From Nitrosopumilus sp. (lineage in GTDB: Archaea > Thermoproteota > Nitrososphaeria > Nitrososphaerales > Nitrosopumilaceae), in NCBI GenBank assembly GCA_963662625.1, contig OY759726.1, positions 1,024,001-1,088,000 of the forward strand: 64,000 bases of DNA, read 5' to 3'. The translations under genes were made by a program, and so were the position numbers. This document shows positions 26,907 through 50,190 of the stretch, piece by piece; within the stretch, counting starts at the first letter, position 1; each line of letters starts with the position of its first letter. The notes under the pieces are model-generated. The model saw nothing but the letters and a program-made list of their open reading frames with translations. It was not told where the DNA came from and did no database searches.

Positions 26907-29094
26907 GTATGAGGTCACCACCCCTACACTGTCTTGGATGCCCCGCCTGACAGGGATTTCCCGTGCCCCCCACGTGATCATGCACGTCATGAAGTAGGAC
27001 CGCCTGTCCCTCCAGGGCTTCCCGACCTTGATCTGGCCGCCTGTCTTTCGGGACACCACCATGTGCCGCAGGCCGCGCCCGGGGGCGCTGTCCGTGGGTC
27101 CCGCCCCCCGTGCCCCGGGAACGCAGACCGGCGGGGCAGCGGCGCCTGCAGCCTGCCCGCCAGGGGGGCAAGCGCGGTGCCCCTGGCGTCTCCGTGCCCG
27201 AACAGCAGCCTGCGCATCCCAGACCCGGAGGCGCGGCGCAGGCGCGCCGAGTGCCTGCCCGAGGCGGCGCCCGCCAGCGCCCCGGCGTACACGTCTGACA
27301 CCTGCCGGCGCGGCACCCCGGCGCGCGGCGCCGCCCCCTTCCTCTCCGCCGCGTGCCGCAGCTCCCGCAGCCCGCGGGGCCGGCACGGCCGGCGGCGCCC
27401 GCCCGGGCCGGACCTCCCGTACGCGGAGGGCCTGCCGGACGTGACGATCCCGCGGTACCCGTCCATGTACCTGCCGGGCACCTGCGACCCCCTGCTCCGG
27501 CCGTCCACGGTCACGGCGTTCCTGCCGGACTGGATGACCCGCGCCCACCCGTCCTCTCCCGCCAGGCTGGCGCGCGTCCCGTCGGCCCCGGCCCTCTTGG
27601 ACCTCCTGGCGCGTCCCACGATGTCCCGGAACGGCCCGCGCATCGCGCCGCGGGTGCGCCCCGTCACGTTTATGGCTCTGCATGTTTCGCGATCCTCACC
27701 CCGGTGATCTCCCGTACGTAGTGATCACATTAGATAATCGCTCATCTTGGCGACCTTGATCTCCCCCGTGCGCAGCATCGTCCCTATTGATTCCTTCATC
27801 TCGTCGGCCGACCCGTACAGCCTGTTGGCAGTGTGCAGCCCCGTGTTGCGCCACTGTCCCTCCGCCGGGCTGGGGTCTGGCGCGTGGGCGGGAAAGTGCA
27901 TGAGCACGACGTCCCCGCCGCGGCCCCTGACGGCTCCCGTCACCTTGCGCGACTTGCGGCAGCCCGCGCTGCCCGCAGGGACGGGCACCTTCCCGGACCT
28001 CCTGCGGAGCCTGCCGAGAAAGTCCGAGAAGCTGTCCCCGTTAGCCCTCTCGCAGGACGGGCAGCAGGACCCGTCCCGGCGCGGCGCGCCAAACGAGCAG
28101 GACCGCTGCCCCGGCAGCGCGGGCGGGGCCGCGGCCCCGGCGCCCCGGGGCGCCCGCGCCTTCTTCTGCACCAGCCCGATTATGTGGGACGCCTCGTCCT
28201 GGGCGACGACGGCGTACCCCCCGGGGAGCAGCGCGGGACGGCGCGCCTTGCTTTTTTTTAAACGCCCTCCGCCCGGGTCCCGGGGCCGGCTTGGGGTGCC
28301 TGGGCCTGGGGGTCTGCCTCGTGAAGCCGATCCTGCGCGGCACCTCGCATGTCCCGGAGGTGCCGTACCGCACCCCGAACCTTTTCTCCATGCGGGCCGC
28401 CAGGAGGCGGGCGGCCCGCAGGCCCGACCCGAACCCGAACCCCTGCGGGCCCGCGAGGGGGCCTTTCCTGGGCTGCGCCAGCTGCGGCCCGCCCGGCTCC
28501 GGCGGGGTGCCGGGCCTCCTCTCGTCGTACCTGCCGTGGATCCCCGTCCGCATGGCGCGCATGAGCCACCCGCGCACCGTGGAGTAGGGCCGGTTCAGCG
28601 CCCCGCCTATCTGGCGTATGGACGCGCCCTCCTTGCGCATAACGTACGCGAGCAGCCTCGCGCGTGCCTTCGGATCCTTTTCCGTCCTGCGGGTCTTCCT
28701 GAGGTACCCCGCCCCAGTCTTGGGAAGGAACTCCCTCCCTGTTGGTATGATGATGTCTTTCATGCGTGGCGTCAGGCTTGCCACGATCTGGACCTTTCGG
28801 TCTAATATTGTTGGCTGTTTTGTGAGCGATTATTAGTTGGGATTACTACGGCACCCGCCATCTTCCCGAACGGGGCGGCCGCGCGGAGCGGCGCGGCCAC
28901 CGCGGCCACCGTGTTCCTGCCGCAGCTCCCGCGCGCCGGGAGGCCGCCTGGCGCCACGTGCAACTTGCAGCACCCGGGGCCCCCGGCGGCCTGGCCGTTC
29001 TGCGCCTTGCCACGCACGTACTGGCACCTCCTGCCATAGGGATCGGCATGATCGCGCCTTGTTGGTTAAAGGGTCAGCACACGTGACCTCATAC
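26907..29094 (-). mobile_element. Degenerate, internally deleted IS66-family element
   Basis: 12-bp TIR GTATGAGGTCAC / GTGACCTCATAC; 8-bp flanks GCCCGTCC / GCCAGTCC (7/8 match); decayed TnpC motifs; homologous to 41074-42075. Confidence 0.82.
27721..28846 (-). mobile_element. Degenerate IS630-family element nested in the IS66 relic
   Basis: 24-bp imperfect TIR (18/24, core ATAATCGCTCA) flanked by TA; HTH ORF, A8 slippery run at 28252-28259, QDEAS, decayed P..PxxNPxExxW; IS66 sequence resumes on both sides. Confidence 0.85.
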
Positions 29095-29141
29095 GCCAGT
29101 CCCGGCGGACGGGCGCGCGATCCGGTCCTGCCACGGCATGA

Positions 29142-29216
29142 AGGGCTCGGAGGGCTTCGATCCCTCGACCTGGCGGTCCGAAGCCGCCCGCACTATCCTG
29201 ACTGTGCTACGAGTCC
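29142..29216 (-). tRNA. tRNA-Arg(TCG)
   Basis: Cloverleaf GGACTCG..GCAC/GTGC..GGCGG-CT-TCG-GA-CCGCC..GAGGG-ATCGAAG-CCCTC-CGAGCCC; one acceptor-stem mismatch. Confidence 0.88.
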
Positions 29217-29259
29217 AAAAAAATAAGAATTTAACGGGCCTAAATACCTGTCTTGGTAC

Positions 29260-30435
29260 ATGAAGGTATCAAGGAAGGTGGTCGGAGTGGAGTACGCAAT
29301 CCGGGACATCGTGCTTGCCGCCAGGAGGGTGCAGCAGAAGGGGATGCGGGTAGACTACCTCAACATAGGCGATCCGGTGCAGTTCGGCTTCCAGCCGCCC
29401 GACAACGTGCGGCAGGCGCTCGTCGACTCCGTCAGGAGGGGCGAGAACTACTACTCCCCGTCCGAAGGCCTGCCGGAGCTCCGCGACGCGATAGCGAAAA
29501 AAGAGGGCGCCAACGGCTTCCAGACATCCCCCGACGACGTACTGATCACCAACGGCGTCTCCGAGGGGCTGGACATGGTGATGTCGTCGATCGTGGAGGA
29601 GGGCGACGAGGTGCTGCTGCCCGGGCCGTACTACCCGCCGTACGCGTCGTACGTCCGGCTGCACGGCGGGGTGCCCGTCGAGTTCGCAGTCGACCTGGAG
29701 CACTCCACGCCCGACATAGGAGACATAATGTCCAAGATCACCCCGAAGACGGTCGCAATCTGCCTGATCAGCCCGAACAACCCCACGGGCGTGGTGTTCA
29801 ACGAAAAGTCGCTGAGGGAGCTCGTGGACATCGCGAACCAGCACGGGCTTTACATAATCTGCGACGAGATATACGACCGGATAGTGTTCGACGAGGAGTT
29901 CGTCGGCATCGGTAGGGTGGCAGGCGACTCCCCGGTGATAGTCCTCAACGGCTTCTCCAAGGTCAACCTGATGTCGGGGTGGCGCATCGGCTACATCGCG
30001 TTCGGCCGGTCCCCGGGGCTCGACGGCCTGCGCGAACACCTGCCAAAGCTGGCCCGGGTCAGGATAGCGACGAACCTGCCGGTCCAGCACGCGGCCCTGG
30101 AGTCCCTCCGGGGGCCGCAGGACTACATATCCCGGTTCGTGTCCGAACTGAAGGCGCGCAGGGACTTCGTGGTGGGGCGCCTCAACTCGATGCCGGGGCT
30201 GTCCTGCCCCGTCCCGAGGGGCGCGTTTTACGCGTTCCCGAGGATCGAGACCGACAGGTTCGGCACCGACAAGGAGTTCGTCACGGGCCTCCTGGAGTCG
30301 AAGGGGGTCCTGACCGTCCACGGCTCAGGCTTCGGGGAGCAGTTCGGCAGCGGGCACTTTAGGCTGGTCTTCCTGCCCGGCATGGACGTGCTGGAGTCCG
30401 CAATGGACAAGATCGAGGAGTTCGTGGGTCAGTAG
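29260..30435 (+). CDS. PLP-dependent class I/II aminotransferase (AlaA/AspC-like)
   Basis: LNIGDP, PNNPTG, DEIY, GFSK..MSGWRIG, GAFY. Confidence 0.93.
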   Translation: MKVSRKVVGVEYAIRDIVLAARRVQQKGMRVDYLNIGDPVQFGFQPPDNVRQALVDSVRRGENYYSPSEGLPELRDAIAKKEGANGFQTSPDDVLITNGVSEGLDMVMSSIVEEGDEVLLPGPYYPPYASYVRLHGGVPVEFAVDLEHSTPDIGDIMSKITPKTVAICLISPNNPTGVVFNEKSLRELVDIANQHGLYIICDEIYDRIVFDEEFVGIGRVAGDSPVIVLNGFSKVNLMSGWRIGYIAFGRSPGLDGLREHLPKLARVRIATNLPVQHAALESLRGPQDYISRFVSELKARRDFVVGRLNSMPGLSCPVPRGAFYAFPRIETDRFGTDKEFVTGLLESKGVLTVHGSGFGEQFGSGHFRLVFLPGMDVLESAMDKIEEFVGQ

Positions 30436-30830
30436 CTCCAGTACGAGAGCCTGTCGGGCACGATCTCGATTATGCAGTCGGTGTCGTCGAGCAGCTCCGC
30501 GGCGGCCTTGGATTCCAGCGAGTCGTAGTACCTCGAAAGGATCCTCCTTGCGATCCTCTTCACCCTGCCCACCTCCAGGATCAGGCTGGCGCGCCCGCGG
30601 CCCGCGACGCCGAAGATGTCCGGGGAGTTCACGCCCACGTCGACGCAGAACGCGACGTCCCCGTTCCTCCCCACGTTCCTCGCCTTCTGCGTCCCCGCGT
30701 TGGTGCCCACGTAGAGTTTTTTAGCGATGAGGCCGTACCACACGGGAACCACGTGGGGCGTCCCGTCGGCCCCCACCGTCGCCAGCCTCAGGACCTTCTG
30801 GGATCTCAGGAACTCATCCCTTTTGTTCAC
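30429..30830 (-). CDS. Pyridoxamine 5'-phosphate oxidase-like (putative F420-dependent) protein
   Basis: LATV..DGTPHVVPVW, K.RN..N..VAFCVD; GTG start assumed. Confidence 0.82.
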   Translation of the reverse strand: MNKRDEFLRSQKVLRLATVGADGTPHVVPVWYGLIAKKLYVGTNAGTQKARNVGRNGDVAFCVDVGVNSPDIFGVAGRGRASLILEVGRVKRIARRILSRYYDSLESKAAAELLDDTDCIIEIVPDRLSYWSY

Positions 30831-31047
30831 GCCTACGAAGGCCCCAGAGCGCCATAAAAACCCCAAAGCCGATCATCCCAGCCGAGACCTTCTCGTTGGT
30901 GACCTCGGAGTTCACCAGGAACTCCAGCATGAACTCGGGGCCCCACAGGATCAGCTGCCTCACGAGCACGATCCCCGCCATGATCCCAAACAGCGCGCCT
31001 ATGGCCGTGTGCCAGTTCCTGCCGCGCCTGTAGTGTTCGTGGCTCAT
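30814..31047 (-). CDS. Small membrane protein
   Basis: 77 aa, two hydrophobic segments, operonic spacing. Confidence 0.65.
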   Translation of the reverse strand: MSHEHYRRGRNWHTAIGALFGIMAGIVLVRQLILWGPEFMLEFLVNSEVTNEKVSAGMIGFGVFMALWGLRRREQKG

Positions 31048-31058
31048 GGCGCGGGCGC

Positions 31059-31730
31059 CTAGACGATCTTTATCCCGGGGTTCTTCATCTTGTTCCTGAT
31101 CATCGCGTTCAGGAGCAGCGGCGTGGAGATCTCCGCAAGGTATGCCAGCTTCCCGGGGCCCAGGTAGACCGGCCTCAGCCCGCTTATCTCGTTGATGAGC
31201 CCGTTGACCACGCCCACCGCCCCCATGTCGTCCCCGCAGACGAATATGTCGTAGTCCAGTTCCAGCGTGGGGTTGGCGAGTTTTTTCTCCGAGATGACGT
31301 GGAACGCGGAGACCAGCCTGGAGCTGTCCCTGACGTGCCTTGAGACCAGCTGGTGCGAGAACGGCATGCCCTCCTTTATGGGTATGAACTCAAACCCGGC
31401 GTCGGTCTTGACCATGGGGACTATCGGGGAGACCACGACGCACCCGTCCCTGGCCTGGGGGCACACCTCGGAGCACACCGCGTCTATGTTGCCGTACGGG
31501 ATGGACAGGACCAGGACGTCGCTTTCCCTTGCCACGGAGGCGTTGTCGCCGCCGCCGACCGTGCCGCCGACCTGCCCGAAGGCCTCCCTCGCGGCGCCGG
31601 CGTACTCGTCGGCCGCCGCCCTTGCCCGGGCCGCGTCCCTCGAGCCCACCAGCACGTCGTGGTTACGGCACCACCTGAGCGCGAAGCCCTTCCCCATGCC
31701 GCCGGTGCCGCCTATGATCCCGACCTTCAT
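31059..31730 (-). CDS. npdG: NADPH-dependent F420 reductase
   Basis: IIGGTGGMGKG, VGSRD, VSAFH, DIFVCGDD. Confidence 0.88.
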   Translation of the reverse strand: MKVGIIGGTGGMGKGFALRWCRNHDVLVGSRDAARARAAADEYAGAAREAFGQVGGTVGGGDNASVARESDVLVLSIPYGNIDAVCSEVCPQARDGCVVVSPIVPMVKTDAGFEFIPIKEGMPFSHQLVSRHVRDSSRLVSAFHVISEKKLANPTLELDYDIFVCGDDMGAVGVVNGLINEISGLRPVYLGPGKLAYLAEISTPLLLNAMIRNKMKNPGIKIV

Positions 31731-31764
31731 GGTGTTGCTCTGACAATGTTATTATTATCTCTAT

Positions 31765-32403
31765 ATGAACTCCCACCAATTGGGCTCTATTATTTTTCTA
31801 CGGCACGGACAGGCCAAAAACAACGTCGAAAGAGTCCTGGCAGGCCGCACCCCCGGGATCCCGCTCACCGACGAGGGGGCGGAGCAGGCAGGCCAGGCAG
31901 CCGGGTACCTGGCCGAGATGGGCGTCTCGGCGGTCTACTCGAGCCCCGTCCAGAGGGCCAGGGAGACTGCCGACATAGTGGCGCGCCGCAACTCGCTGGA
32001 GGTCGCCCTCGACGACCGGCTGATCGAGCTCGACATGGGCAAGTTCACCGGGATGCCCTACGACGAGATCTTCACCAGCCACGGCAACGTCTTCCTAAAG
32101 TTCTACAACGGCGAGCTGGAGATAGCGCACAACGGGGTGGAGACCTTCTCGGAGGTGAAAAAGCGCGTCCTGAGCATGGTGGGCCACGTCCTCGAGCGCC
32201 ACCCGGGCGAGAACGTCGTGCTGGTGACCCACATGGACCCGATCAAGGCGATGCTGTCCACCGTGGTGGACCTGAGCCCCGGGAACCTCTTCGAGCTGAT
32301 CCTCGCAAACGCGTCCCTCAACATATTCCGGGAGTCAGGGGGGCGGTTCACGGTATCGGGGCTCAACGTGATGCACCCCTCGCGCTTTGCCGGCGACTGG
32401 TGA
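31765..32403 (+). CDS. Histidine phosphatase (phosphoglycerate mutase) family protein
   Basis: LRHG, SSP..RA.ETA, LIELDMG, VTH; start may be TTG at 31780. Confidence 0.9.
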   Translation: MNSHQLGSIIFLRHGQAKNNVERVLAGRTPGIPLTDEGAEQAGQAAGYLAEMGVSAVYSSPVQRARETADIVARRNSLEVALDDRLIELDMGKFTGMPYDEIFTSHGNVFLKFYNGELEIAHNGVETFSEVKKRVLSMVGHVLERHPGENVVLVTHMDPIKAMLSTVVDLSPGNLFELILANASLNIFRESGGRFTVSGLNVMHPSRFAGDW

Positions 32404-32490
32404 TCGCGATCCCCCCAGCGCCGGGCAAATTCGCCGCGGCGTCTTGAAAACCCTTAAATAGAAATCAGAGATCACGAAGGTCAATCACCT

Positions 32491-32754
32491 ATGAAAGGCA
32501 CGCTCGGACTCCTCTCGTTGTTGGCAGTTGCGGTTATAGTTCCCGCAGCGGAATATGCGCTTGCCGCGGGCGACGAGCCCGGGGAGTACGTCGATCGCAG
32601 GGTGCTTATATGGAACCTGTTCTTCAGGATGATGACCGTCGCGTTCACCGTCGGCGCTGTCGTCTCGGGTACGATCATCTGGCTGGTCCTCCGGTTCAGG
32701 GAGTCGAATCCCAAGGCAAAGCCGACTCCGTACGAGAAGGAAGGGGTGTGGTAG
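32491..32754 (+). CDS. Heme-copper oxidase subunit II, N-terminal part (signal peptide + TM1)
   Basis: Signal peptide, TM helix, RFRE...P loop; first gene of cox operon; ends at TAG. Confidence 0.75.
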   Translation: MKGTLGLLSLLAVAVIVPAAEYALAAGDEPGEYVDRRVLIWNLFFRMMTVAFTVGAVVSGTIIWLVLRFRESNPKAKPTPYEKEGVW

Positions 32755-32757
32755 GCG

Positions 32758-33189
32758 ACGGGACACCATTCCAACTGGCCCGAGTGGATCTACATCGGCA
32801 TCGTGATCGCGCTGATGACGTGGGTGGGCGCCGAGGCCTGGAACGTGGAACGCATAGTGGAGCACGTCCCGGCGGACGCCGAGGTCATCAAGGTCACGGG
32901 CCAGCAGTGGTTCTGGATGTTCGAGCACGAGGACGGGACCAAGGAGATAGGCGAGCTGCACCTCGACGCCGGAAAGGCGTACAAGTTCGAGGTGATGTCG
33001 ACGGACGTGATACACTCGTTCAACATACACGACTACGTGGTGCTGATGGACGCGGTGCCGGGCAGGGTGAACACGGTGTGGTTTGCGCCGGACCAGCCCG
33101 GCGAGCACGACATCCAGTGCAGGGAGTACTGCGGGCTGATTCACTACAACATGCGCGGAAAACTGATAGTGGAGGACCCGCTGTCTTGA
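32758..33189 (+). CDS. coxB: Heme-copper oxidase subunit II, TM2 + CuA domain (start uncertain: ACG 32758 or GTG 32803)
   Basis: GQQWFW, DVIHSF, DAVPG, CREYCGLIHYNM CuA motif. Confidence 0.9.
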   Translation, partial: TGHHSNWPEWIYIGIVIALMTWVGAEAWNVERIVEHVPADAEVIKVTGQQWFWMFEHEDGTKEIGELHLDAGKAYKFEVMSTDVIHSFNIHDYVVLMDAVPGRVNTVWFAPDQPGEHDIQCREYCGLIHYNMRGKLIVEDPLS

Positions 33190-37530: not shown

Positions 37531-37635
37531 CTCCCACCAATGGCACCCACCCGCGGCGCGGCCACTACGTCCGGCACCGTCCTGCAAACGCGCTCTGCCA
37601 GGCGCCCAACAAGATTGTGGCCCCCACGCGCCGCC

Positions 37636-38067
37636 TGTAGTATATGTAAAGTCGGTCCGCTAACCATCTGTGTCCACCTCCATCCATCTCGGGCTGCTCT
37701 CACTGATCGTGCCCTGGCATTCTTGTCATGGAAGGCCTTCATCGGGGTCTGGCAGTTGCCGGTGTCCGGGGAGAAGCGCAACCTGTCCCAGTTGCAGTAC
37801 CCGACGCACTAGGACGTGCTCCCGTGGCGTAGTATCCGTGATTAAAATGGGATCAGGCACGGTGCACCAAGTTTCCTGCACGACTGCATTGGGTGGATGC
37901 AGGCATCGATCTTGGCCATGCTTGGCAACGGGGAGGCCAGGGCCATCAAGATGGTCCAATATTTAACACCGTCACTGCGCCATGTCCCGTGTGGGTTTCC
38001 ACGTATTGAATCTTTTGGTCGGGATTGTTGTCCAAGTTGTGATCCAACATCAATCGCGTATACTACG
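37636..38067 (-). mobile_element. Short relic of an IS481-like element
   Basis: End TGTAGTATATG with decayed inverted counterpart at 38055-38067; minus-strand fragments YCNWDR..QTPMKAF..PRWME resemble an integrase-core C-terminus. Confidence 0.45.
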
Positions 38068-38325
38068 CACCCTGCCCGAATGCCTGAGGACGTCCCACGC
38101 AGGGCTTGACGTTATGAAGTACACCAGCAGGAAGCCCTTGGTGCTCAAGAACTTTTGAGCGTTGCTATAGGTTGTTGCCAACGGGGACGGTGCGCGGCCG
38201 TGATCCAAGGACTTTTCGGTTTGGCATGGCTGGGCCGGTGGTTCAACTGTTTGGACCCGGCAATTTCTGGCAGTTGTGCAACAGGCTACAAAGCTGGGTT
38301 TCCTTATATTGTGCCAGTGGCAGGC

Positions 38326-39402: not shown

Positions 39403-39459
39403 ACTGCCTTTAGCGCGGCGGGATTCAAGCGCCCGGGGTGTAGTTTGTTGAACACATGA

Positions 39460-40847
39460 TAACCACCCAGGCGTAGTTGCCCCGATGGACCGGCCCCTGG
39501 TAGCGCGTGGGCCTAGCGCCCTTTCTGTTGAATGGGGCAACCCGGGCTGCCGTGTCACTGGGCTTCGCGCCCTGATGGGCGTGTGCGGCCTCCGATCCGT
39601 CAGACATCCGAAAGGAGGTGATAGGAAAGGATGAGAAAGACAAGCATAGGGACAGGCATGGGGAAGAGAAAGTGCGACGCGTGCGTGGCGGGCGGGAACG
39701 GGAAGGTTCCCGGGAGGGGGCAGTACCCCGACACCCGGGACGGCGCGGCGAAGTTCGCAGGGGCGATGGCGCGCAGGCATGCCTGGGCGGCGGCCCCTGC
39801 AGGGCCGCCCGCGAGACGACTGGCAACATGCGGGACAGGACGTCTGGCGCCTCCGGGGCGACCGGGACCGGCATCAAACTGGCCAACACGCACAGGATGG
39901 CCCTGATAGCCAGGACCGCCAAGAAGACCGACATGGTGGACGCCGAGAAGATAGCGCAGGTGCCGGGAACGGGCATGATACCGGAGCGCTGCGTCCCCCC
40001 GGGCCACACCAGGGGGATACGCGCGATGGCCGGGCATAGGGTGAGGCTGGCCCGGGACAGGACGCGCGTGACAAGCCGCGCCCGCAGCCTCCCGGGCCGC
40101 CACGACATCCAAATGGACGCCTCCACCATGCACTCCGAAAAGGCCCTGGGGCAGCCGGAGTCCGCGGGGCCGGGCTCCGTGTGCGACGGGGCGGTGCTGG
40201 TCCAGTGCGCCCGGCAGGCGGGGCACCTGACGGAGGAGATCTCCGTGACGGAGGGGCTCCCCGGGACGGGGGCCGCCCACAACGGTGACGCGAGGCTGCC
40301 GGCCGGCACGGCCGGCGTCGGCACGCTCGCCGCGGTGCTGATGGCCCCAGGGATGGGGGACGTCCCCGGGTTCAGGGGGCCAAGGCAGATGGCGTCGTGG
40401 GCCGGGCTGTGCCCGGCCGCATGCCAGTCGGGGAACCGGCTGCACGCGGGGAGGATCAAGAAGATCGACTCCAGCAGCCTGGCTAGCCGGGCCACGTGCG
40501 AGGCCGCGGACGTGGCAGTGCGGCACGACGCCAGGATGGAGGCCGTGTACGCGTCCGCGCGCCGGAGGCACGCGGACATGCACGGGCCGGCCATAATCGT
40601 GGTGGCCCACAAGATGGTCACCATAATGTGGCACATGCTGACCACCAAGACACCCTACGAGTCCCGCAACGAGAGGCTGTACCGGCGCAAGCTGGCCAGG
40701 ACGGGTAAGGCGCGCCGGGGTTGACCCCCCCGTTGCCCGCATCCCGGATCGTCTTGCCAGCGCTAGCCATGAATCCCATGCCATGCAACCCAGGCACGGA
40801 TCGGAAAAGCCGTGGGATGCATTGCGGCAACTACGCCTGGGTGGTTA
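39460..40847 (+). mobile_element. IS110/IS1111-family element with frameshifted, degenerate recombinase
   Basis: 22-bp perfect IR TAACCACCCAGGCGTAGTTGCC; KKTD..DA, GVG, WAGLCP...QSG, AHKM motifs; ORF start 39631 is out of frame with the rest. Confidence 0.88.
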
Positions 40848-41073
40848 ACATAGGTGCGCAACCATGCCTGAACCCGTCTTTGTGGGGTTGTTTTTCGTGC
40901 CTGAAAACCGAGTTGCGCAACAAGCTACTTGGGGGGGAAACTATACCTGAAATGTGGGTTGTGCAAGAGCACAACGCACTATATTTGTAGTCTATGAGCA
41001 TGACTCCTAGTCGAAGCCGTGCCCTATACACCATATGTATTATTGGGTATATATACGGTCTGTTACATACTAG

Positions 41074-42075
41074 GTATGAGGTCACCACCCCTACACTATC
41101 TTGGATACCTCGCCTGACAGGGATTTCCCGTGCCTCTCCCACATGATCATGCACGTCATGAAGTGGGACCACCTGTCCCTCCAGGGCTTCCCTCCCTTGA
41201 TCTGGCCGCTTATCTTTCGGGACGCCACCACGTGCCGCAGGCCGCGCCCGGGGGCGCTGTCCGTGGGCCCCGCCCCCCTGTGCCCCGGGAACGTGAACAG
41301 GCGGGGCAGCGGCGCCTGCAGCCTGCCCGCCAGGGGGGCAGGCGCGGTGCCCCCGGCGTCCCCGTGCCCGAACGGCAGCCTGCGCATCCCAGACTCGAAG
41401 GCGCGGCGCAGGCGCGCCGAGTGCCTGCCCGAGGCGGCGGCCGCCGGCGCCCCCTTCCTCTCCGCGGCGCGCCGCAGCTCCCGCAGCCCGTGGGACCGGC
41501 ACGGCCGGTGGCGCCCGCCCGGGCCTGACCTCCCGTACGCGGAGGGCCTGCCGGACGTGACGATCCCGCGGTACCCGCCCGCGTGCCTGCCTGGCACCCG
41601 CGGCCCCCTGCTCCGGCCGTGCACGATCACGGCGTTCCTGCCGGACCGGGTGACCCGCGCCCGCCCGCCCTCTCCCGCCAGGTTGGCGCGCGTCTCGTCG
41701 GCCCCGGCATTCTTGGACCTCCTGGCGCGGCCCACGATGTCCCGGAACTGCCCGCGCATCGCGCCGCGGGTGTGCCCCGTCACGTTTATCGCGGTCGATT
41801 TCGCGATCCTCACCCCCGTGATCTCCCGCACGGCCCCCGCCATCTTCCCGAACGGGACGGCCGCGTGGCGCAGCGCGGCCACCGCGGCCACCGTGTTCTT
41901 GCCGTAGCTCCCGCGCGCAGGGAGGCCGCTTGGCGCCACGTGCTCCCTGCTGCACTTGGGGCACGCGGCGGTCTGGACGGCGTGGCGCGTCTCCGTCACC
42001 ACCACCTCAAAGTCCAGGATGTCCCGCGTGACGGGCCCAGTAGTTGAAAATGTACCCCGCGGGGCGCCGGCCAGC
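41074..42075 (-). mobile_element. Degenerate IS66-family element, second copy, 5'-truncated
   Basis: Same TIR GTATGAGGTCAC at 41074; open ORF with CPKC, ADET and decayed CWAH and TNN..ER.LR..V..RK motifs. Confidence 0.82.
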
Positions 42076-42119
42076 ATGTTTTGACACGATCCGTGAACGT
42101 TTTGGACAGAAAAGCCAAT

Positions 42120-42500
42120 TGATCAGGCGCCCCTGTCATCCCTTATGCAACACCAAAAAGAACCACAGGGGCACCGGCTTGAGGTGGCGGGCAAGGCGTT
42201 TAAAACGTTGCCACGGCTGCTTGGGAAGGCGGGCATCAGGTTCTCGGGCCGGCACAACGCCGCGTGCGGCATGGCCGACTTCGTGCGCGTGCTGGTGTCC
42301 ATGTGCAGGGACCGCTCGTGCGCGTCGGGCGCCGCCGGGGCGCTCGCCGTGCGCCACGGGCCCCGCCGCGTACCGTCGTCGACGTGGTTCCTGTCCAGGA
42401 TAGGGGGACGTGCCGGGACCCCGGCGCCATGGAGGGCGGGTGCAGGGACGCCCTGCGCTCCACGGTGCGCGGGGCCCGTCGCGCCGGGATCATCGGGGGG
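42120..42500 (+). pseudogene. Possible N-terminal fragment of another transposase (ISH3/IS4-like, uncertain)
   Basis: Frameshifted fragment MQHQKE...VPSSTWFLSRI wedged between IS66 and IS110 relics. Confidence 0.35.
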
Positions 42501-43540
42501 TCAACCCCGGCGCGCCTTACCCGTCCTGGCCAGCTTGCGCCGGTACAGCCTCTCGTTGCGGGACTCGTAGGGTGTCTTGGTGGTCAGCATGTGCCACATT
42601 ATGGTGACCATCTTGTGGGCCACCACGATTATGGCCGGCCCGTGCATGTCCGCGTGCCTCCGGCGCGCGGACGCGTACACGGCCTCCATCCTGGCGTCGT
42701 GCCGCACTGCCACGTCCGCGGCCTCGCACGTGGCCCGGCTAGCCAGGCTGCTGGAGTCGATCTTCTTGATCCTCCCCGCGTGCAGCCGGTTCCCCGACTG
42801 GCATGCGGCCGGGCACAGCCCGGCCCACGACGCCATCTGCCTTGGCCCCCTGAACCCGGGGACGTCCCCCATCCCTGGGGCCATCAGCACCGCGGCGAGC
42901 GTGCCGACGCCGGCCGTGCCGGCCGGCAGCCTCGCGTCACCGTTGTGGGCGGCCCCCGTCCCGGGGAGCCCCTCCGTCACGGAGATCTCCTCCGTCAGGT
43001 GCCCCGCCTGCCGGGCGCACTGGCCCAGGACCAACCCGTCGCACACGGAGCCCGGCCCCGCGGATTCCAGCTGCCCCAGGGCCTTTTCGGAGTGCATGGT
43101 GGAGGCGTCCATTTGGATGTCGTGGCGGCCCGGGAGGCTGCGGGCGCGGCTTGTCACGCGCGTCCTGTCCCGGGCCAGCCTCACCCTATGCCCGGCCATC
43201 GCGCGTATCCCCCTGGTGTGGCCCGGGGGGACGCAGCGCTCCGGTATCATGCCCGTTCCCGGCACCTGCGCTATCTTCTCGGCGTCCACCATGTCGGTCT
43301 TCTTGGCGGTCCTGGCTATCAGGGCCATCCTGTGCGTGTTGGCCAGTTTGATGCCGGTCCCGGTCGCCCCGGAGGCGCCAGACGTCCTGTCCCGCATGTT
43401 GCCAGTCGTCTCGCGGGCGGCCCTGCAGGGGCCGCCGCCCAGGCATGCCTGCGCGCCATCGCCCCTGCGAACTTCGCCGCGCCGTCCCGGGTGTCGGGGT
43501 ACTGCCCCCTCCCGGGAACCTTCCCGTTCCCGTCCACCTG
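42496..43540 (-). mobile_element. IS110-family recombinase relic, second copy, inverted, lacking intact ends
   Basis: Near-identical reverse complement of about 39690-40729. Confidence 0.9.
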
Positions 43541-43572
43541 CATGGTGCCCATCCCCGCGGGCAACTGCACGC

Positions 43573-44127
43573 TCACGCCTTGCGCAGCAGCGTGAACCTC
43601 GCCCTGTCCGGCTCGATCTCCTCGTGCATGTCCACGTTGCTGATCACCCTCACCCCGTAGCCCCGCCACCTCCTGTACATGTTGCGGTACCTGGAATGCC
43701 CGTCGATCCGCCCCTCGTGCTCCCCGAACCTCTCGCAGTTCATTATGTACCTCCTGGCGACCCTGTGCATCTCGGCGACCCCCCTGTCCAGCGTGGCCCC
43801 GTCCAGGTAGTTCAGCAGCCCGTGCGTGAACACGAGGTCCACCGACGCGTCCCCGAACGGCAGGCACGAGATGTCGCCCCTGACAAATCCCCCGTGCGGG
43901 CACCCGCGCCTCGCCATGGCAAGCGCCCTGCAGTTCGGGTCGACCCCGTAGACCCCGGCGGTCTCGGGGAGGAGCCTCAGGTCGATCCCCGTGCCGCACC
44001 CCGCCTCGAGCACGCTTGAGCACCCCAGCGACGCGGCCAGGCCGCTGACGTACCTGGCGAACTCCGCGTTGTACCTGGCCTCGTTCCCGTCGGCGTACCT
44101 GTCCCAGAAGCCCTCGTCGTACCCCAT
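43573..44127 (-). CDS. Class I SAM-dependent methyltransferase
   Basis: VLEAGCGTG, GVD, GD...LPF.D.SVDLV. Confidence 0.9.
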   Translation of the reverse strand: MGYDEGFWDRYADGNEARYNAEFARYVSGLAASLGCSSVLEAGCGTGIDLRLLPETAGVYGVDPNCRALAMARRGCPHGGFVRGDISCLPFGDASVDLVFTHGLLNYLDGATLDRGVAEMHRVARRYIMNCERFGEHEGRIDGHSRYRNMYRRWRGYGVRVISNVDMHEEIEPDRARFTLLRKA

Positions 44128-44161
44128 GGAACCCCCACGCGCAGCCGGTATTTGATGCTAG

Positions 44162-44326
44162 TCACCTGTGGGCGCACGCGCACGGGACCATCTCGGTGTC
44201 AAACGCGCAGTCGTGCGGCCCCTCTGACCTGCCGTCCGTGGGGATCTCCTTCATGCACTCGCCGTGGCGGCCCTTCCTGCAGAACCAGCACACCCTGTAC
44301 GTCTTCCCCGGCGCGCACGACCCCAT
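44162..44326 (-). CDS. 54-aa Cys-rich microprotein
   Basis: Manual translation MGSCAPGKTYRVCWFCRKGRHGEC...HDC...PCACAHR*; fills the ilvE-methyltransferase gap. Confidence 0.65.
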   Translation of the reverse strand: MGSCAPGKTYRVCWFCRKGRHGECMKEIPTDGRSEGPHDCAFDTEMVPCACAHR

Positions 44327-44366
44327 CGGAAACACTAGCGGGATTGCAGGTAAAAACCTTCGCGGG

Positions 44367-45281
44367 CTAGACGAACTCCAGCCACCTCAGGAACCTCTCG
44401 TCCCTGCCCGTGGCCGCGTCCGTGAACGACTTCTGCAGGGCCCTGGTGACGGCCCCCATCTTCCCGTTCCCGATGCTCACCCTGTCGATCTGCGTCACCG
44501 ACTTTACCTCCGCGGCGGTACCCGTCATGAACACCTCGTCTGCCAGGTACAGGTCGTCCCTGTCCAGGTCAGCCTCCTCCACGGAGCCGCCGTCCTCCTC
44601 GATGATCCGGATCACGCTGTCCCTAGTGATCCCCCCCAGACCCCCCGCGGAGAGCGGGGGCGTCCTGACGGCGCCGTCCTTGACCACGAAGATGTTCTCG
44701 GCGCTGCCCTCGGCAACCTTCCCGTGCATGTTGAGCATTATGGCCTCGTCATAGCCGTCTTCTAGCGCCTCGACCCTAGCGAGCGCGGCGTTGGAGTAGT
44801 TTGCGGCGGCCTTTGCCTGCGTGGGCTGCGACCGGGAGTCGATCTTCGCCCAGCTCGAGACCTTGCACCTGGCGCCCTCGAACTTTCCCGCGCTAGACTC
44901 GCCCATCTTCCACTCCCAGCACGCGATGGACACGTCCACCCTGTTCTGGGTGGGGGTGAGCCCCATCTTGCCGTACCCGTAGTACGCCAGGGGCCTGATG
45001 TAGCACTCCTTCAGGCCGCTTGCCCTCACGGTGTCCATTATGGCGCCGCTGATCTGCCTCTTCGAGTACCGCATCCTCATCGAGTACAGCTTTGCTGACC
45101 TGAAGAACCTGTCGACGTGGTCCGCCAGCCTGAACACTGCCCTGCCCCTCGCGGTGTCGTAGCACCTGATCCCCTCGAAGATGGACGTGGAGTAGTGCAG
45201 CGCGTGGGTGAGCACGTGCACCTTGGCGTCCCTGAACGGGACCAGGCTGCCGTTCATCCAGATCTTGCCCGCCTCCCTCAT
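44367..45281 (-). CDS. ilvE: Branched-chain amino acid aminotransferase
   Basis: HALHY, FEGIR, YIRP, AKAAANY, EGSAENIF, GITR, TGTAAEV. Confidence 0.96.
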   Translation of the reverse strand: MREAGKIWMNGSLVPFRDAKVHVLTHALHYSTSIFEGIRCYDTARGRAVFRLADHVDRFFRSAKLYSMRMRYSKRQISGAIMDTVRASGLKECYIRPLAYYGYGKMGLTPTQNRVDVSIACWEWKMGESSAGKFEGARCKVSSWAKIDSRSQPTQAKAAANYSNAALARVEALEDGYDEAIMLNMHGKVAEGSAENIFVVKDGAVRTPPLSAGGLGGITRDSVIRIIEEDGGSVEEADLDRDDLYLADEVFMTGTAAEVKSVTQIDRVSIGNGKMGAVTRALQKSFTDAATGRDERFLRWLEFV

Positions 45282-45456
45282 GGGTGATAACAAAAACCCT
45301 ACCAATTTAAAGAATTATCTCGAGCGCTCCCCGGCATGACCTGCCGCGCGGCCCATCCCGGACCGGCCCCCGCGGGGCTGCCTTCCGCGCCTGGAAGACC
45401 GCCCCGCGAGACTGCCAGGCAGGAAACTACATATTCGATCAGGCGTAACATAATGC

Positions 45457-45660
45457 ATGGAATGGTACCTGGGAATCTCCGCGATAGCGCTCCTCGTGGT
45501 GGGCCTCGTCGGCCAGGCCTTTGAGATGAGGAGGATCAGGGTGGCCGCCTACCAGGGCGGCATGGGATCGTCGAACATTTTCCTGGACCGGCGCAACTTC
45601 AAGTGGTACGGCCTGATCGGGCTGGGAATGGTCATGTGGTACGCCGCGGAGCGCATGTGA
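45457..45660 (+). CDS. Small membrane protein
   Basis: 67 aa, two hydrophobic segments. Confidence 0.65.
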   Translation: MEWYLGISAIALLVVGLVGQAFEMRRIRVAAYQGGMGSSNIFLDRRNFKWYGLIGLGMVMWYAAERM

Positions 45661-45730
45661 CGCGCCCGGGCCGTGCCTGGGGGCGCGCGGCGGATCATGT
45701 TCTATATAGATCAATGCTAAATACCCGAAT

Positions 45731-45843
45731 GGCGTACCAACAGCATCGCGTGTTTTGGGTAACGCCGGACTAAATCTAGATAACGGTCCAAGAACAAACC
45801 CACGTTGGCAACCACCGGTGAAACTCCGGCGTTGCCACTGACA
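45731..45843 (+). ncRNA. Candidate structured small RNA
   Basis: TATATA at 45703-45708; three consecutive hairpins; lower GC than flanks. Confidence 0.45.
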
Positions 45844-45844
45844 C

Positions 45845-47248
45845 TCATCTGATCAGGGCCGATGCCTGGTGCACGGCCCTGATGGCCTTCTTGATGTTGC
45901 CGCCAGAGTCCTCCACCACGATGATTATGCGCGACGTCTCCTCCTGCGCGTCCATGTTCAGTATGTTCAGGCCCGCCTCGCCTATCTTCGCGCTGGTCCT
46001 CGACGCGACGTGCTGCGCCCTCCACATCCCGTCGCCGATCAGGGTGATGACGCCCCTGTTGTAGGTGATCGCAGCCAGCGGGTCAAACGCCAGGAAGTAC
46101 TTCTCGTTCCGCCTCACATAGTCCCCGTCCAGGAACAGTATCCTGGAAAACTCTATCCCGTCCCTCGTAAACGGCGACAGTATCACGAACTCGCTGTACC
46201 GCTTGTCCCTTTCCAGCGACACCAGCAGCTTCTGCACCTCGCTTGTCTCTATCCTGAATATGGCGCAGTTCTCCCTCCCAGTGACGATCTTGATCGGCCG
46301 CCCGCCGTCGCGGTCGGGGATCCTCTTTATCGTCGTGGTCTTCGAGGGGTCCCCCATGTTGGTCACCGTGATCGGCACGTCCACGCCGTTTTCGACGATC
46401 TCCTTGATCGCGATCGGGTCCAGGATCTTCATCCCGAACATCCCGGCGAGCCTCGCCTCGTTGTACGACAGCTGGTCCACCTCGCTGAGCCCGGAGTCCA
46501 CGACCTTGGGATCCGCCGACACGACGGCGCTGTCCTTCTCAAAATCCACCCTCGTGTCGTAGTCCTTGTGGAACAGTATGCCGATGTCGGCCGCCGTCCT
46601 GTCGGAGCCCCCCCTCTCGTAGGTGGTCATGGCCCCCTCGGGGGTCCTCCCGATGAAGCCGCCGATCGTGACCACGTCGTTCTCCTCGACGAGCCTTGCC
46701 ATCTCCCCCATCCTGGCCCGCGACTCGGCCGCGAGGAAGTTGGTGGACTCGATGTTGTGGTCCGTGACGATCGGCCAGTCCTCGAACCCCACGGAGCGCG
46801 ATCTCACCCCGCTGCCCCTCAGGACGTGGTCCATCACCTGGGACATCAGGATCTCGCCGGAGAACGCCAGCGCCCTGGAGCGGACCTCGTCTGCGAACTC
46901 CCGCCTCTCGAGGGCCTCGTCGAGCGCCTCCTGGGCCATGCCGAGGCCAAGCCGGACGGCGTCCGCGCACTCGCCCGCGCCCCCGGCCCTCTCCAGGATC
47001 TTGCCGTAGCAGGCGCCGGCGGCGTCCAGCGACGCCCTCGTGCCGGACTCCGCGTTCCTCCCCTGCTCGAGCACCACGTCGGTGAGCGAGCGCCTCTCCC
47101 CGCCCGCCACGGTGAGGGGGGCCGAGAACACGGCTACCACCTTCGAGTCCCGCCCCAGGTCGCCGATCCTCCTGACGATCGCCGGTATCGACGTGCCGTC
47201 CGTGCCCAGGGCGCTGCCCCCGAACTTCGCTACTACCAGGTTTGCCAC
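45845..47248 (-). CDS. lysC: Aspartate kinase
   Basis: KFGGS, SGE, GFIG, RGGSDRTA, SADP, LSYNEA, ACT domain. Confidence 0.93.
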   Translation of the reverse strand: MANLVVAKFGGSALGTDGTSIPAIVRRIGDLGRDSKVVAVFSAPLTVAGGERRSLTDVVLEQGRNAESGTRASLDAAGACYGKILERAGGAGECADAVRLGLGMAQEALDEALERREFADEVRSRALAFSGEILMSQVMDHVLRGSGVRSRSVGFEDWPIVTDHNIESTNFLAAESRARMGEMARLVEENDVVTIGGFIGRTPEGAMTTYERGGSDRTAADIGILFHKDYDTRVDFEKDSAVVSADPKVVDSGLSEVDQLSYNEARLAGMFGMKILDPIAIKEIVENGVDVPITVTNMGDPSKTTTIKRIPDRDGGRPIKIVTGRENCAIFRIETSEVQKLLVSLERDKRYSEFVILSPFTRDGIEFSRILFLDGDYVRRNEKYFLAFDPLAAITYNRGVITLIGDGMWRAQHVASRTSAKIGEAGLNILNMDAQEETSRIIIVVEDSGGNIKKAIRAVHQASALIR

Positions 47249-47294
47249 GGTACATTACGGCTCCCCGCGGTCATCTATTAAGGATTGGATCGCC

Positions 47295-48317
47295 TCAAAG
47301 CAGGCCCCCGATTATCCTCCCGGCCTCGGCCGCCCCCCCGCCCCGGGCGGGCCTCCTGCCCCGCCCGAGCCTCTCCGAGACCAGGTCCGCCAGCCTGTCG
47401 ACGTCCCCGAAGGAGAACCCCTCCCGGCGGGCGTTGTCCTCCTGCTCGAAATGGCCCCTTATCGGGATGAAAACCCCCGGGGTGCCGTACGCGTTTGCCT
47501 CGTCTATCGTGGACCTGCCGGCAAGCGAGACCAGGGCGTCGGCCGCAAAGACGTACTCGTGCAGGTTGTCGACGAACCCGATGTCCCTGGCCCCCCGCCA
47601 CGCACCGCCTGCCCTGCCCAGGGACGGCCCGGGGGCCAGCACCATCTCGGCGCCCCCCCTTATCCCGGGCGCCGCCTCCAGGGCCTTCTCGATCAGGAAG
47701 CCCCCGGCGTCCGTCCCCCCCACCGACACCAGGACCGTGTTCCTCCCAAACGAGAACCTCTCCCTCAGCTCCCCCCTGGAGAGCGACGCCTGCCTGACCA
47801 CCGGGCCGACCCTCGATACGTTGCCGCTGTCCTCCCCGCGCTCCGGCATGATCACCGCGTCGCACCTCCCGATGATCTCGCGCATCGCCCCGTTCATCGC
47901 CCTCTCGATGACCGACGCCGGCCATCCGGCAAAGCGCGTCTCGAGCACGTCCGTTACCAGGACCGTCGGGATCCCCATCTCCTGCGCCACGGCCAGCGAC
48001 GCAAAGTCCTCGTCGCTTGCCACCAGGCGGGGGCGCCGCGCCCCGATGACCCTCCTTGCCGCCGCCTTGCATTCCCTGTAGTACCGGTAGTAGCCCAGCA
48101 GCCACCTCCCCTGGCCGGCCAGGCGGCCGTCCCTCACCGCGAACCGCGGGGGGTCGTACAGGTCCTCGGCCGCGAAGCCGGCCCCCCTCAGGAGCCGCGC
48201 CGCGTGGCCCCCGGAGACGAACCCCGCCGGGACGCCCCCCATGGCCCCCGCTATGGCGATGTCCCTGGCGGCGTGGCCCAGCCCTATGGGGCTGGTAAAG
48301 AAGAGCAGGCCGGCCAT
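47295..48317 (-). CDS. GT28/MurG-like glycosyltransferase
   Basis: GLGHA.R, VGP, VSVGG, AGRSTIDEA..GTP, HFEQ.DNA. Confidence 0.85.
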   Translation of the reverse strand: MAGLLFFTSPIGLGHAARDIAIAGAMGGVPAGFVSGGHAARLLRGAGFAAEDLYDPPRFAVRDGRLAGQGRWLLGYYRYYRECKAAARRVIGARRPRLVASDEDFASLAVAQEMGIPTVLVTDVLETRFAGWPASVIERAMNGAMREIIGRCDAVIMPERGEDSGNVSRVGPVVRQASLSRGELRERFSFGRNTVLVSVGGTDAGGFLIEKALEAAPGIRGGAEMVLAPGPSLGRAGGAWRGARDIGFVDNLHEYVFAADALVSLAGRSTIDEANAYGTPGVFIPIRGHFEQEDNARREGFSFGDVDRLADLVSERLGRGRRPARGGGAAEAGRIIGGLL

Positions 48318-48464
48318 GGCACCACGCCGCGCCCCCCACATTTCTGCATTCCCGGCGGCGGCGGATCCTGGGGAACGAGGCGGGCGCCGGGTCCGGTGGC
48401 GCGCGGGGGCAGCGGCGGGGCCGGCCGCTCAAAGTTTAAATGGTTTTCAGCGAGGTATGTCTCT

Positions 48465-48539
48465 GGGCCCATAGTCCAGTTCGGTTATGACGTCGCCCTT
48501 ACACGGCGAAGATCCGGGGTTCAAGTCCCCGTGGGCCCA
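48465..48539 (+). tRNA. tRNA-Val(TAC)
   Basis: GGGCCCA/TGGGCCC; TCGCC-CT-TAC-AC-GGCGA; GGTTCAAGT; TTTAAA promoter upstream. Confidence 0.95.
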
Positions 48540-48834
48540 TCCAGGCTTCGGACTCGGGCCAGCCTAGCGCGGCCTGCCGCCCGGGCCATGCGTCATTGCC
48601 ACACGCAGGACTCGAGGATGCCCGCGACGTCCGCGGGAATGGCGGCCACCCCGTACGTCCTGACCATGATCCTTTTCTTCCCCGCCGCCAAGAGCCCGCG
48701 CCGCCCAAGCCTTCCCGCCGTGGAGGCGGGCTTTTCGTCCCGCCGCCATTCCGCAGTCCACTGGCCGCATCCCTGGGGCACTTCTGGGAAGACCGCACGG
48801 CACCGGTTTGTTTTTATACCCTCTCCCAACAATC

Positions 48835-50109
48835 ATGGCATTGAACAAAGCCCTCATTGCCGTACCGATAATCGCGGTGGCCATAATCGTATCCATCGCG
48901 ATGAGCTATTCCGCGGATCCCGGATCCGACATGCAAGACCCGGTATCCCCGGCGCAAGACCCGGTATCCCCGGCGCAAGACCCGGGATCCCAGGCGCAAG
49001 AGGCGCCGGCCCTGTCAGGCGACGTGAACCTGGGCGTACTGCTCCCGCTGACCGGCGACCTGGCCAGCCACGGGGAGGAGGACAGGATGGCGGCCCTGCT
49101 CGCGGTGGACGACTTTAACGCGTACCTGAGGGACAACGGCAGGGACTGGCAATTTACCAGCACCGTGGAGGACACGCAGACAAACCCGGTGATTGCGCTG
49201 GAAAAGGTCACGGCGCTCAACGCGAAGGGAATAAACGTCGTGGTGGGGCCCGCCACCAGCGCGAACATAAGGAACATCATAGGGTACGCCACCGCGAACA
49301 ACGTTATACTGATCAGCTGCTGCAGCACCGCCCCGGCGCTGGCAATAGCCGGGGACAACGTCTTCAGGACAGTCCCCGACGACACCAAGCAGGGGCCGGC
49401 GATCGCGGACCTGATGAAGTCCCGCGGCGTCGAAGCCCTCATTCCAGTGTGGCGGGCAGACGCCTGGGGCGACGGCCTGAGGGACGCCACGGTTGAGGCG
49501 TTCTCCTCGTCTGGCGGCGTCGTGGACGACGGCATAAGGTACAACCCCGAGTCCCCGGAGTTCTCGGCGTCAACCTCGCTCCTGGCGAACCAGGTCCAGC
49601 AGTACGTGGACCAGTACGGCGCCGACAAGGTGGGGGTGCTTCTGATCTCATTTTCTGAGACCCTCCAGTTCATGCAGTCGGCCTCGGCGCACGACGTGCT
49701 GGACGACGTGAGGTGGTTCGGCTCGGACGCCAACACCAACGAGCAGAAGATCATAGAGGATCCCATAGGGCTCCAATTCTCCCAGGCGGTCGATTTCACC
49801 ACCGTGCAGTTCGCTGCGTTTGACAACCCCGTTAACAAGAGGGTGAAGGACCACATAGTGTCGGAGCTCGGCAGGGTCCCGAGCGTCTACGCCTACACCT
49901 CGTACGACGCCGTCTGGCTTGCGGGCCTCGCGATCGACGCGGCGCAGAGCACGGAGACGGCGCAGATCAGGGAGAACATCATCCCGGTCGCCGCCGACTT
50001 TACCGGCGCGGTCGGCTCGACCAAGCTCAACCCCGCGGGGGACCTGGACTCCTCGGACTATGCCGTGTGGACGATAAGTGACGACGTGTGGATAGTCATC
50101 GACCAATAG
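48835..50109 (+). CDS. ABC branched-chain amino-acid (LivJ-like) substrate-binding protein, stand-alone
   Basis: N-terminal TM, GVLLPLTG, EDT, VVGP..S, STAP.L, FRTVPDD, YDAV; 21-bp repeats in linker. Confidence 0.9.
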   Translation: MALNKALIAVPIIAVAIIVSIAMSYSADPGSDMQDPVSPAQDPVSPAQDPGSQAQEAPALSGDVNLGVLLPLTGDLASHGEEDRMAALLAVDDFNAYLRDNGRDWQFTSTVEDTQTNPVIALEKVTALNAKGINVVVGPATSANIRNIIGYATANNVILISCCSTAPALAIAGDNVFRTVPDDTKQGPAIADLMKSRGVEALIPVWRADAWGDGLRDATVEAFSSSGGVVDDGIRYNPESPEFSASTSLLANQVQQYVDQYGADKVGVLLISFSETLQFMQSASAHDVLDDVRWFGSDANTNEQKIIEDPIGLQFSQAVDFTTVQFAAFDNPVNKRVKDHIVSELGRVPSVYAYTSYDAVWLAGLAIDAAQSTETAQIRENIIPVAADFTGAVGSTKLNPAGDLDSSDYAVWTISDDVWIVIDQ

Positions 50110-50139
50110 CCAGCTGGTACGCGGCACTGGCATGAGCAT

Positions 50140-50190
50140 GTGGTAGCCACCCGGGCGCAGTTGCCCCGATGGATCGGCGCCCGGCAGCGC
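50140..50190 (+). mobile_element. Solo relic of the IS110 left end
   Basis: 42/51 identity to 39456-39506. Confidence 0.8.

Follow-up and report, generated by a model that had tools for sequence, protein, structure and literature searches.

The 64,000-base window analysed here is a stretch of a single-contig Nitrosopumilus genome (bases 1024001-1088000 of 1,858,698; 63.4% GC, 99.5% complete; labelled G000), and several decayed insertion sequences (IS) lie within it. On balance, these and the other IS relics of the genome probably record a genome-wide, lineage-specific pressure from A:T to G:C, mainly mutational and with strong site preference, and are not special targets of change. The relics display the behaviour of unselected DNA, both in G000 and in G060, a GC-rich 3.2-Mb genome of a different (sister) genus, and the high GC of the lineage is plausibly explained by this GC-ward bias. 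As archaeal AmoA is encoded by the genome, the organism is an ammonia-oxidising archaeon; about 271 kb of its DNA has at least one repeat match.

In what follows, W stands for A/T and S for G/C, and spectra are written as W>S transitions / S>W transitions / transversions. Comparisons draw on G001 and G002, low-GC congeners of the same genus (G001 being 97% complete), and on G008, a mid-GC relative. An earlier note on this DNA, made from the sequence alone, had proposed that its IS relics decay almost only by A:T>G:C transitions, through either a general or an element-targeted process.

Results

A:T to G:C transitions dominate the decay of IS relics

When compared with their intact master copy (genome 1194284-1195699), the IS110 relics at 728464, 476448, 1699627, 1507275 and 17305 gave spectra of 44/0/0, 89/1/1, 143/19/40, 186/12/15 and 199/2/9, respectively. 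The young relics, represented by the first two, have changed near-exclusively by A:T>G:C transitions. Relics of at least five transposase types depart from their masters mainly in this way, and the same W>S direction is found in families B, C1, D, E, F, G, O and P, whose masters have DDE_Tnp_1, rve or DDE_3 domains; the effect is thus common to several unrelated transposition chemistries. In family D, for example, one relic compared with four identical masters gave 70/9/4. As a control, two intact subfamilies differ symmetrically (41/40/80). The IS110 copies of G008, too few to carry weight, gave a symmetric 46/35/24.

Counting each distinct change once over 28 relics of eight families (2999 W and 6049 S master sites) yielded 927 W>S transitions, 166 S>W transitions and 247 transversions, the last made up of 54 W>S, 96 S>W, 21 W<>W and 76 S<>S changes. 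A:T>G:C transitions thus account for 927 of 1340 distinct changes (69%), which is a lower bound because some of the other changes belong to the masters' own history. The wording "almost only" of the earlier note therefore suits the young relics but overstates the case overall. The rates of change, 0.327 per A/T site and 0.043 per G/C site (odds ratio of W>S to S>W per site 10.7, p ~1e-282), predict an equilibrium of about 88% GC, and dead DNA in G000 reaches 75-80% GC. Simple arithmetic from these totals gives a GC-ward asymmetry of about 11-fold for transitions and about 1.1-fold for transversions. The frames of IS110 relics stay open for 360-440 codons, mostly without a stop, in agreement with the earlier observation of open dead frames, and they persist because neither A>G nor T>C can give rise to TAA, TAG or TGA.

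Polarity is set by intact masters and outgroups

A majority rule, by which a base was counted where it differed from at least four agreeing copies, gave a very different picture when applied to all repeats: 502 AT>GC transitions, 394 GC>AT transitions and 377 transversions, apparently unbiased, with single copies extreme in either direction. Among these was the IS110-type copy at 1194284-1195699, whose 29 "private" changes under this rule were all G:C>A:T. That copy encodes the canonical IGIDIGK, LR and VQDRTRVINRVH and stops at TGA; the remaining IS110 copies read IGTGMGK, PG and ARDRTRVTSRAR, and their frames continue beyond the master's TGA stop. Its scores on DEDD_Tnp_IS110 and Transposase_20 are 98 and 78.2 bits, against 64 and 62 for a relic, and at the 39 residues that differ between it and the nearest relic, outgroup transposases from four other genomes match it at 32 and the relic at 2. 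It follows that this copy is the intact master, that the relics share derived A:T>G:C changes, and that the majority polarisation, which we dropped, was wrong. Such a rule conceals the bias because relics have edits in common, and this is a practical warning that majority-consensus polarisation of IS copies misleads when decay recurs at hot sites. Final polarisation relied on masters, either intact or present as identical copies, together with Pfam scores and the transposases of outgroups. The change of the IS110 catalytic GID to GTG, pointed out in the earlier note, is borne out by the alignment, in which every relic, including the window copy, reads IGTGMGK.

The direction of change extends to unique genes and to a second genome

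In 876 long unique open reading frames (ORFs) of G000, GC at the first, second and third codon positions (GC1, GC2 and GC3) is 0.60, 0.45 and 0.86, and fourfold sites are 87% GC, next to the equilibrium of about 88% predicted from the relics. In a three-way comparison restricted to sites where G001 and G002 agree, the G000 branch shows 958 W>S against 31 S>W transitions in unique genes. Together with the relic odds ratio, this upholds the strong GC-ward bias that the earlier note had proposed: neutral sites are far richer in GC than constrained ones, and W>S changes, once polarised, are more frequent per site than S>W changes, as expected of directional GC-ward pressure. From G002 to G000, about 88.7 kb of aligned DNA contains 13,784 W>S and 1,814 S>W transitions. 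Orthologous DNA over one region is 0.43-0.46 GC in G001 and G002 and 0.64 in G000, and 199 kb fetched from G002 is 42% GC. GC accordingly lies about 20 points apart within one genus (loci L004 and L005 against L001).

The same direction is seen in G060, where IS66 relics compared with three near-identical masters gave 1050 W>S transitions, 232 S>W transitions and 573 transversions, and individual relic fragments reach 84-89% GC. As a separate observation, loci L083-L112 of the 3.2-Mb sister-genus member have a GC of about 0.70.

Not all similar repeats are affected: six identical master copies of family C2 and four of family D are unedited, with 0-2 differences. Nor is the change confined to repeats and their near flanks, as the figures for unique genes demonstrate. 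Taken with the match to fourfold composition, these results mean that the element-targeted version put forward in the earlier note is not needed as the main cause.

Coupled changes at T-N-N-A

The edits, as we call the W>S transitions of relics, are not independent of one another. The youngest IS110 relic carries 22 T>C and 22 A>G changes, most of them in pairs three bases apart, and its T..A pairs at distance 3 (d3) number 11 against 0.4 expected. At the T-N-N-A sites of the first IS110 relic, both bases changed in 11 cases, one in 2 and none in 36. Over eleven master-relic comparisons from many families, T..A pairs at d3 were observed 117 times against 23 expected; the corresponding figures were 35 against 16 at d2, 42 against 16 at d4 and 10 against 14 at d1. 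In the opposite orientation, A..T pairs at d3 numbered 33 against 20 expected, and same-strand pairs at d3 were depleted (A..A, 11 against 25; T..T, 17 against 28). Coupled changes of 5'-T-N-N-A-3' to C-N-N-G make up about a third of relic edits, and in the single full-length relic of family D some 23 T..A pairs make up about two thirds of the 70 edits.

The intervening bases matter as well. One or more relics had both bases edited at 27 of 32 TCGA, 34 of 53 TGGA, 22 of 36 TCCA and 8 of 38 TGCA sites, which makes TCGA the hottest site (TCGA versus TGCA, Fisher p = 2e-7). A T three bases upstream lifts the fraction of A edited to 0.44 from 0.13-0.23, and a neighbouring A reduces it; by the base at position -1, the editing fraction is 0.24 for G, 0.225 for C, 0.26 for T and 0.115 for A. 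These are graded preferences: a simple local motif was ruled out, as identical 8-mers are edited in one place and unedited elsewhere. Codon-phase or protein-level selection behind the pairing was likewise rejected, since editing is alike at all three codon positions (0.17-0.26; non-coding ends, 0.10). A short base excision repair patch from a T:G mismatch was also set aside, as it predicts enrichment at d1-2 and of T..T pairs, neither of which was seen.

Edits shared among relics and conversion between copies

The edited sites of the IS110 family form a nested series. In every family, W>S edits are common to pairs of relics far more often than chance would give, and more often than other changes are; one pair, for instance, has 63 of 65 edits and 6 of 12 other changes in common, and another 33 of 42 and 2 of 7. 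Pure descent, or pure time-ordered site susceptibility, was ruled out for the nested edits, as the transversions are not distributed as either would require; the sharing is best put down to hot-site recurrence, common descent and short-tract conversion together. Short-tract conversion between copies is directly visible in the window. The arms of an inverted IS110 pair differ at 8-9 sites lying in three short blocks, in which the arm at 42494..43538 has the master state and the sister arm, with a related fragment, has the relic state. Because these tracts restore A/T, conversion is not obviously GC-biased here.

IS elements of the window

The elements named in the earlier note were found where it had placed them, with Pfam support for IS66 copy 2 (PF03050), IS110 (PF02371, PF01548) and the IS630-like element (HTH_33/HTH_23). 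The main part of IS66 copy 1 (26907..27718, minus strand) has 85-93% DNA identity to five other IS66-like copies; it has no Pfam match alone, but shares 77% identity with copy 2 across 53 residues, and tblastn-type matches link it to the copy-2 protein. It is broken at 27718 by another element, and its remainder past the insertion (28848..29095, minus strand) aligns with the continuation of other IS66-like copies. The inserted element is an IS630-like relic of family G/O (27718..28859, minus strand) that matches HTH_33 and HTH_23 only; the DDE_3 domain present in the related lower-GC copies F, O and P was not matched in it. The string AHAPDPSP was located at 27725-28171 on the minus strand, as the earlier note had read it, in the decayed counterpart of P-Y-x-P-x-L-N-P, which we take to be the IS630 motif. 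Against the lowest-GC family copy (genome 14884-15948), the relic shows 80 W>S transitions, 24 S>W transitions and 19 transversions, and a contig of run X2, from another sample, covers it at 27769-28845 with 0 differences.

The IS110 relic of the window (family A; 39441..40857, plus strand), which carries the IGTGMGK reading, matches PF02371 at 39618-40724 with 45.7 bits, while its PF01548 score of 21.3 bits lies under the curated cut-off; its spectrum against the intact master is 96/9/21. A partial inverted duplicate (42494..43538, minus strand), 99% identical to 39687-40730, gives 74/5/17. The inverted arms (39687-43538) flank IS66 copy 2 (41074..42037, minus strand; PF03050 at 39.2 bits, with repeat matches) and a 470-bp fragment (42032..42500, plus strand) homologous to the 5' part of the DDE_Tnp_1 family C elements, with 18 genomic copies. 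A solo left end of an IS110-family element lies at 50136..50190 (plus strand). Read by eye against the left end of the master, it has 8 A>G or T>C changes among 9-10 differences, close to the 7 of 9 counted earlier. Elsewhere in the genome, an IS110-type element and a DDE_Tnp_1 element of family B lie end to end at 1194278-1196973, 718141-720839 and 728464-731133, and at these three loci the pair behaves as if moved or duplicated as a 2.7-kb unit. One of these copies has very unequal numbers of edits in its two halves.

The residue changes that the earlier note had listed for the two IS66 copies were mostly recovered. Seven of eight were located (copy 1 E>G, as DET>DGT, N>S and FE>SG; copy 2 W>R, D>G, I>T and Y>H), and SYGK>SCGR was not found in the codons compared. 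As to their ancestral states, outgroups clearly back E>G and W>R and partly back I>T and FE>SG, the rest being ambiguous. In a direct comparison, copy 2 has W where copy 1 has S at 22 sites, the reverse holds at another 22, and 16 transversions also separate the copies.

The IS relics sit among ordinary genes that a Pfam search assigns to aminotransferases, an amino-acid kinase and a binding protein. Further repeats in the window include long in-frame tandem repeats at 20664-21779, 54647-55528 and 57405-58143, with periods of 30, 111 and 42 nt; short non-coding repeats of about 105-195 bp at 37630-37830 and 38066-38290, with about 10-15 genomic copies at 75-95% identity; and paralogous gene segments at 15279-15809 and 17894-18439, 2.6 kb apart and 82-98% identical. 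Genome-wide, 75-nt periodic repeats occur at many loci, cross-match and resemble large repeat-protein families. The coding DNA of unique ORFs contains far less CTAG than expected (observed/expected 0.19) and more GATC (1.67).

Repair genes

The earlier note had drawn attention to nucS, endonuclease V and UDG. Endonuclease V and NucS were not found in G000, a 99.5%-complete single contig, and UDG-family genes are present; none of this discriminates G000 from its low-GC congeners. Endonuclease V occurs in 8 of the 21 relatives searched (0 of 3 genomes of the genus and 2 of 12 others of the family), and NucS in 5 of 21, none of them in the genus. Deficiency of endonuclease V or NucS was therefore rejected as the cause, as G001 and G002 also lack both and a lineage-specific loss is not seen. 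Ogt, NDK, a Y-family polymerase, two UDG-family genes, one HhH-GPD glycosylase and one dCMP-deaminase-type gene are present in G000, G001, G002, G003 and G008, none of which was matched by the DCD model. An ITPase gene is present in G000, G002, G003 and G008 and was not found in the 97%-complete G001.

Discussion

Mutation, fixation or targeting

From the spectrum and coupling of these substitutions, we infer that the pressure is mainly a mutational bias with strong site preference. Several of our own observations weigh against this reading, or against its being a single genome-wide process. All data are substitutions in one genome, and fixation bias would produce a shift of the same direction. 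Relics differ widely in their ratio of W>S to other changes, and in one composite copy 44 edits lie in the IS110 part and at most about 13 in the adjoining element. Since edits are shared above chance, part of the pattern is recurrence or conversion and not independent events. Coupling is weak in unique genes, where 1543 synonymous T..A words, counted by hand, gave 575 with both bases changed, 309 with none and 659 with one, against 530, 264 and 749 expected; A..T words at such sites show no excess. A genome-wide depletion of TCGA was looked for in genes and not seen (observed/expected 1.08), and G060 is without orientation-specific coupling (T..A 62 against 43, A..T 68 against 47). At gene third positions the GC-ward asymmetry is 88-fold for transitions and about 6-fold for transversions, the latter an estimate that is inflated by conditioning on sites conserved in two AT-rich genomes and by multiple hits. 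Lastly, among 10 gene families tested, no gain or loss separates G000 from the low-GC congeners.

The strongest of the competing accounts, although we judge it rather unlikely, is fixation bias: mutation would be AT-biased or neutral, like that of other prokaryotes, and G/C alleles would be fixed preferentially through GC-biased heteroduplex repair between cells or through selection on GC, with all DNA, relics included, following. The common direction in relics and unique genes fits such a process, as does the GC bias of third-position transversions, and short-tract conversion between IS copies does occur. An excess of GC>AT mutations reported to segregate as polymorphism in nearly all bacteria (PMC2936529) can also be counted in its favour. 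However, the asymmetry in the relics is confined to transitions, and this speaks for mutation because fixation bias should favour all W>S changes. The orientation- and distance-specific coupling of T..A, and the excess of TCGA over TGCA, would be unexpected under fixation bias, the three conversion tracts in the window restore A/T and hence are not GC-biased, and the many decaying IS copies suggest that selection is weak.

It is also conceivable, but in our view improbable, that a host process resembling repeat-induced point mutation (RIP) with A:T>G:C polarity converts paired adenines in IS copies, atop a genome-wide drift. The strength of the T..A coupling in relics beside its weakness in unique genes, the undepleted TCGA of genes, the bursts of W>S change without other changes in the young relics, the editing of identical sites in relics that have few other changes in common, and the IS110 half of the composite copy, edited about 3-5 times more than its neighbour, are all what such a process could produce. 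Against it stand the identical C2 and D copies without edits, the polarity of unique genes, the agreement of relic bias with fourfold composition and the lower editing of termini and non-coding parts than of the ORF (10% against 17-26%). W-site turnover in unique genes is, moreover, at least equal: it is 60% at third positions, and the most edited relic has at most 44% of its A/T sites changed. That assembly or polishing errors, or mis-mapping of paralogues, made the G/C states is very improbable indeed. Cross-mapped reads during polishing could in principle yield edits common to copies, but errors would not leave masters untouched, the graded series of states is consistent across many loci, and G060 shows the same direction. 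Four public runs containing the present DNA, stored as contigs, include pieces of unique DNA that match the window with 0-2 differences, the listed variants coming from paralogous IS copies; contigs of other runs match unique DNA and one relic exactly.

The genome-wide and mainly mutational pressure that we favour could act as follows. Intact transposase genes are already at about 90% GC at third codon positions, with selection keeping A/T at the first and second positions. Once a copy is dead, its first- and second-position A/T sites would drift to G/C, chiefly by transitions. The same pressure would have moved G000 to 63% GC, with a GC3 of 0.86, its two congeners being near 42-46%.

The coupled pattern, we infer, fits paired adenine lesions or double misincorporation and not fixation bias. 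A concerted change would hit two adenines on opposite strands, 3 bp apart, with TCGA preferred; a dimeric adenine-modifying or adenine-excising enzyme, or a bifunctional adduct, would be candidate causes, and the change would be fixed inside the duplex by G:T-type mismatch correction. We can only tentatively suggest, as a possibility that is more doubtful than the general pressure itself, that a novel mutational process turning such opposite-strand adenines (5'-T-N-N-A-3', best TCGA) into guanines in one event was among the chief forces that raised GC from about 43% to 63% inside a single genus. We cannot place the T-N-N-A double substitution in any known process, and within the parts of the literature that our search covered, no paper was found on A:T>G:C decay of prokaryotic IS relics or on a T-N-N-A double-substitution signature.

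Comparison with known systems

The general view of prokaryotes is that mutation is AT-biased and that selection or biased conversion keeps GC-rich genomes so. Against that view, DNA that is dead and free of selection shifts strongly to G/C in both G000 and G060, two GC-rich ammonia-oxidising archaea, and in G000 the shift is marked by its distinctive coupling. The broader frame is provided by directional mutation pressure and by amelioration toward host composition (Sueoka; Lawrence and Ochman). As in that frame, GC3 exceeds GC1 and GC1 exceeds GC2 in the present genome, and DNA freed from selection nears the composition of neutral sites; unlike ordinary amelioration, the dead DNA goes GC-ward, to 75-80% here and 84-89% in G060, with coupled double substitutions.

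Fungal RIP produces one-directional C:G>T:A transitions on both strands of repeats, at up to tens of percent of susceptible sites and with a context preference. One-directional transitions on both strands of repeated elements, with context preference, are found here also, but the polarity is A:T>G:C, identical repeats escape and unique genes drift alike. GC-biased gene conversion gives a net W>S excess with G/C alleles shared among paralogous copies; in contrast, the bias of our relics is confined to transitions and comes with orientation-specific coupling over 3 bp.

Mutator spectra dominated by A:T>G:C are known from bacteria deficient in repair or with a disturbed dNTP pool (loss of mismatch repair, ndk, dcd, and nfi under nitrosative stress). 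The transition-dominated spectrum described here is similar, and the MutS-independent NucS and endonuclease V were not found; unlike in mutators, low-GC congeners have the same inventory for every family tested, and NDK is present. The colibactin-type signature involves opposite-strand adenines 3-4 bp apart, with a 5'-A..T-3' motif in AT-rich DNA and single changes. Here, too, an A>G change is tied to a second adenine about 3 bp away on the other strand, but in the orientation 5'-T..A-3', around a G/C-rich core and with both adenines changed. ADAR-type hyper-editing has a 5' neighbour preference in which G is disfavoured; that preference does not hold here, G at position -1 being edited at 0.24.

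A likeness in genome features, as opposed to habitat, is found with the sponge-associated Thaumarchaeota, GC-rich ammonia oxidisers with many transposases. Their GC is given as 47-67%, compared with 32-34% in free-living marine relatives, and the mechanism behind the raised GC is said to need further investigation (PMC6697440, PMC7848895). This published rise in GC fits the picture of a genome-wide pressure. What the present work adds to those papers is a polarised spectrum, and the master-and-relic IS series could serve as a ready source of such spectra for the question of high GC in the sponge-associated lineages (PMC6697440).

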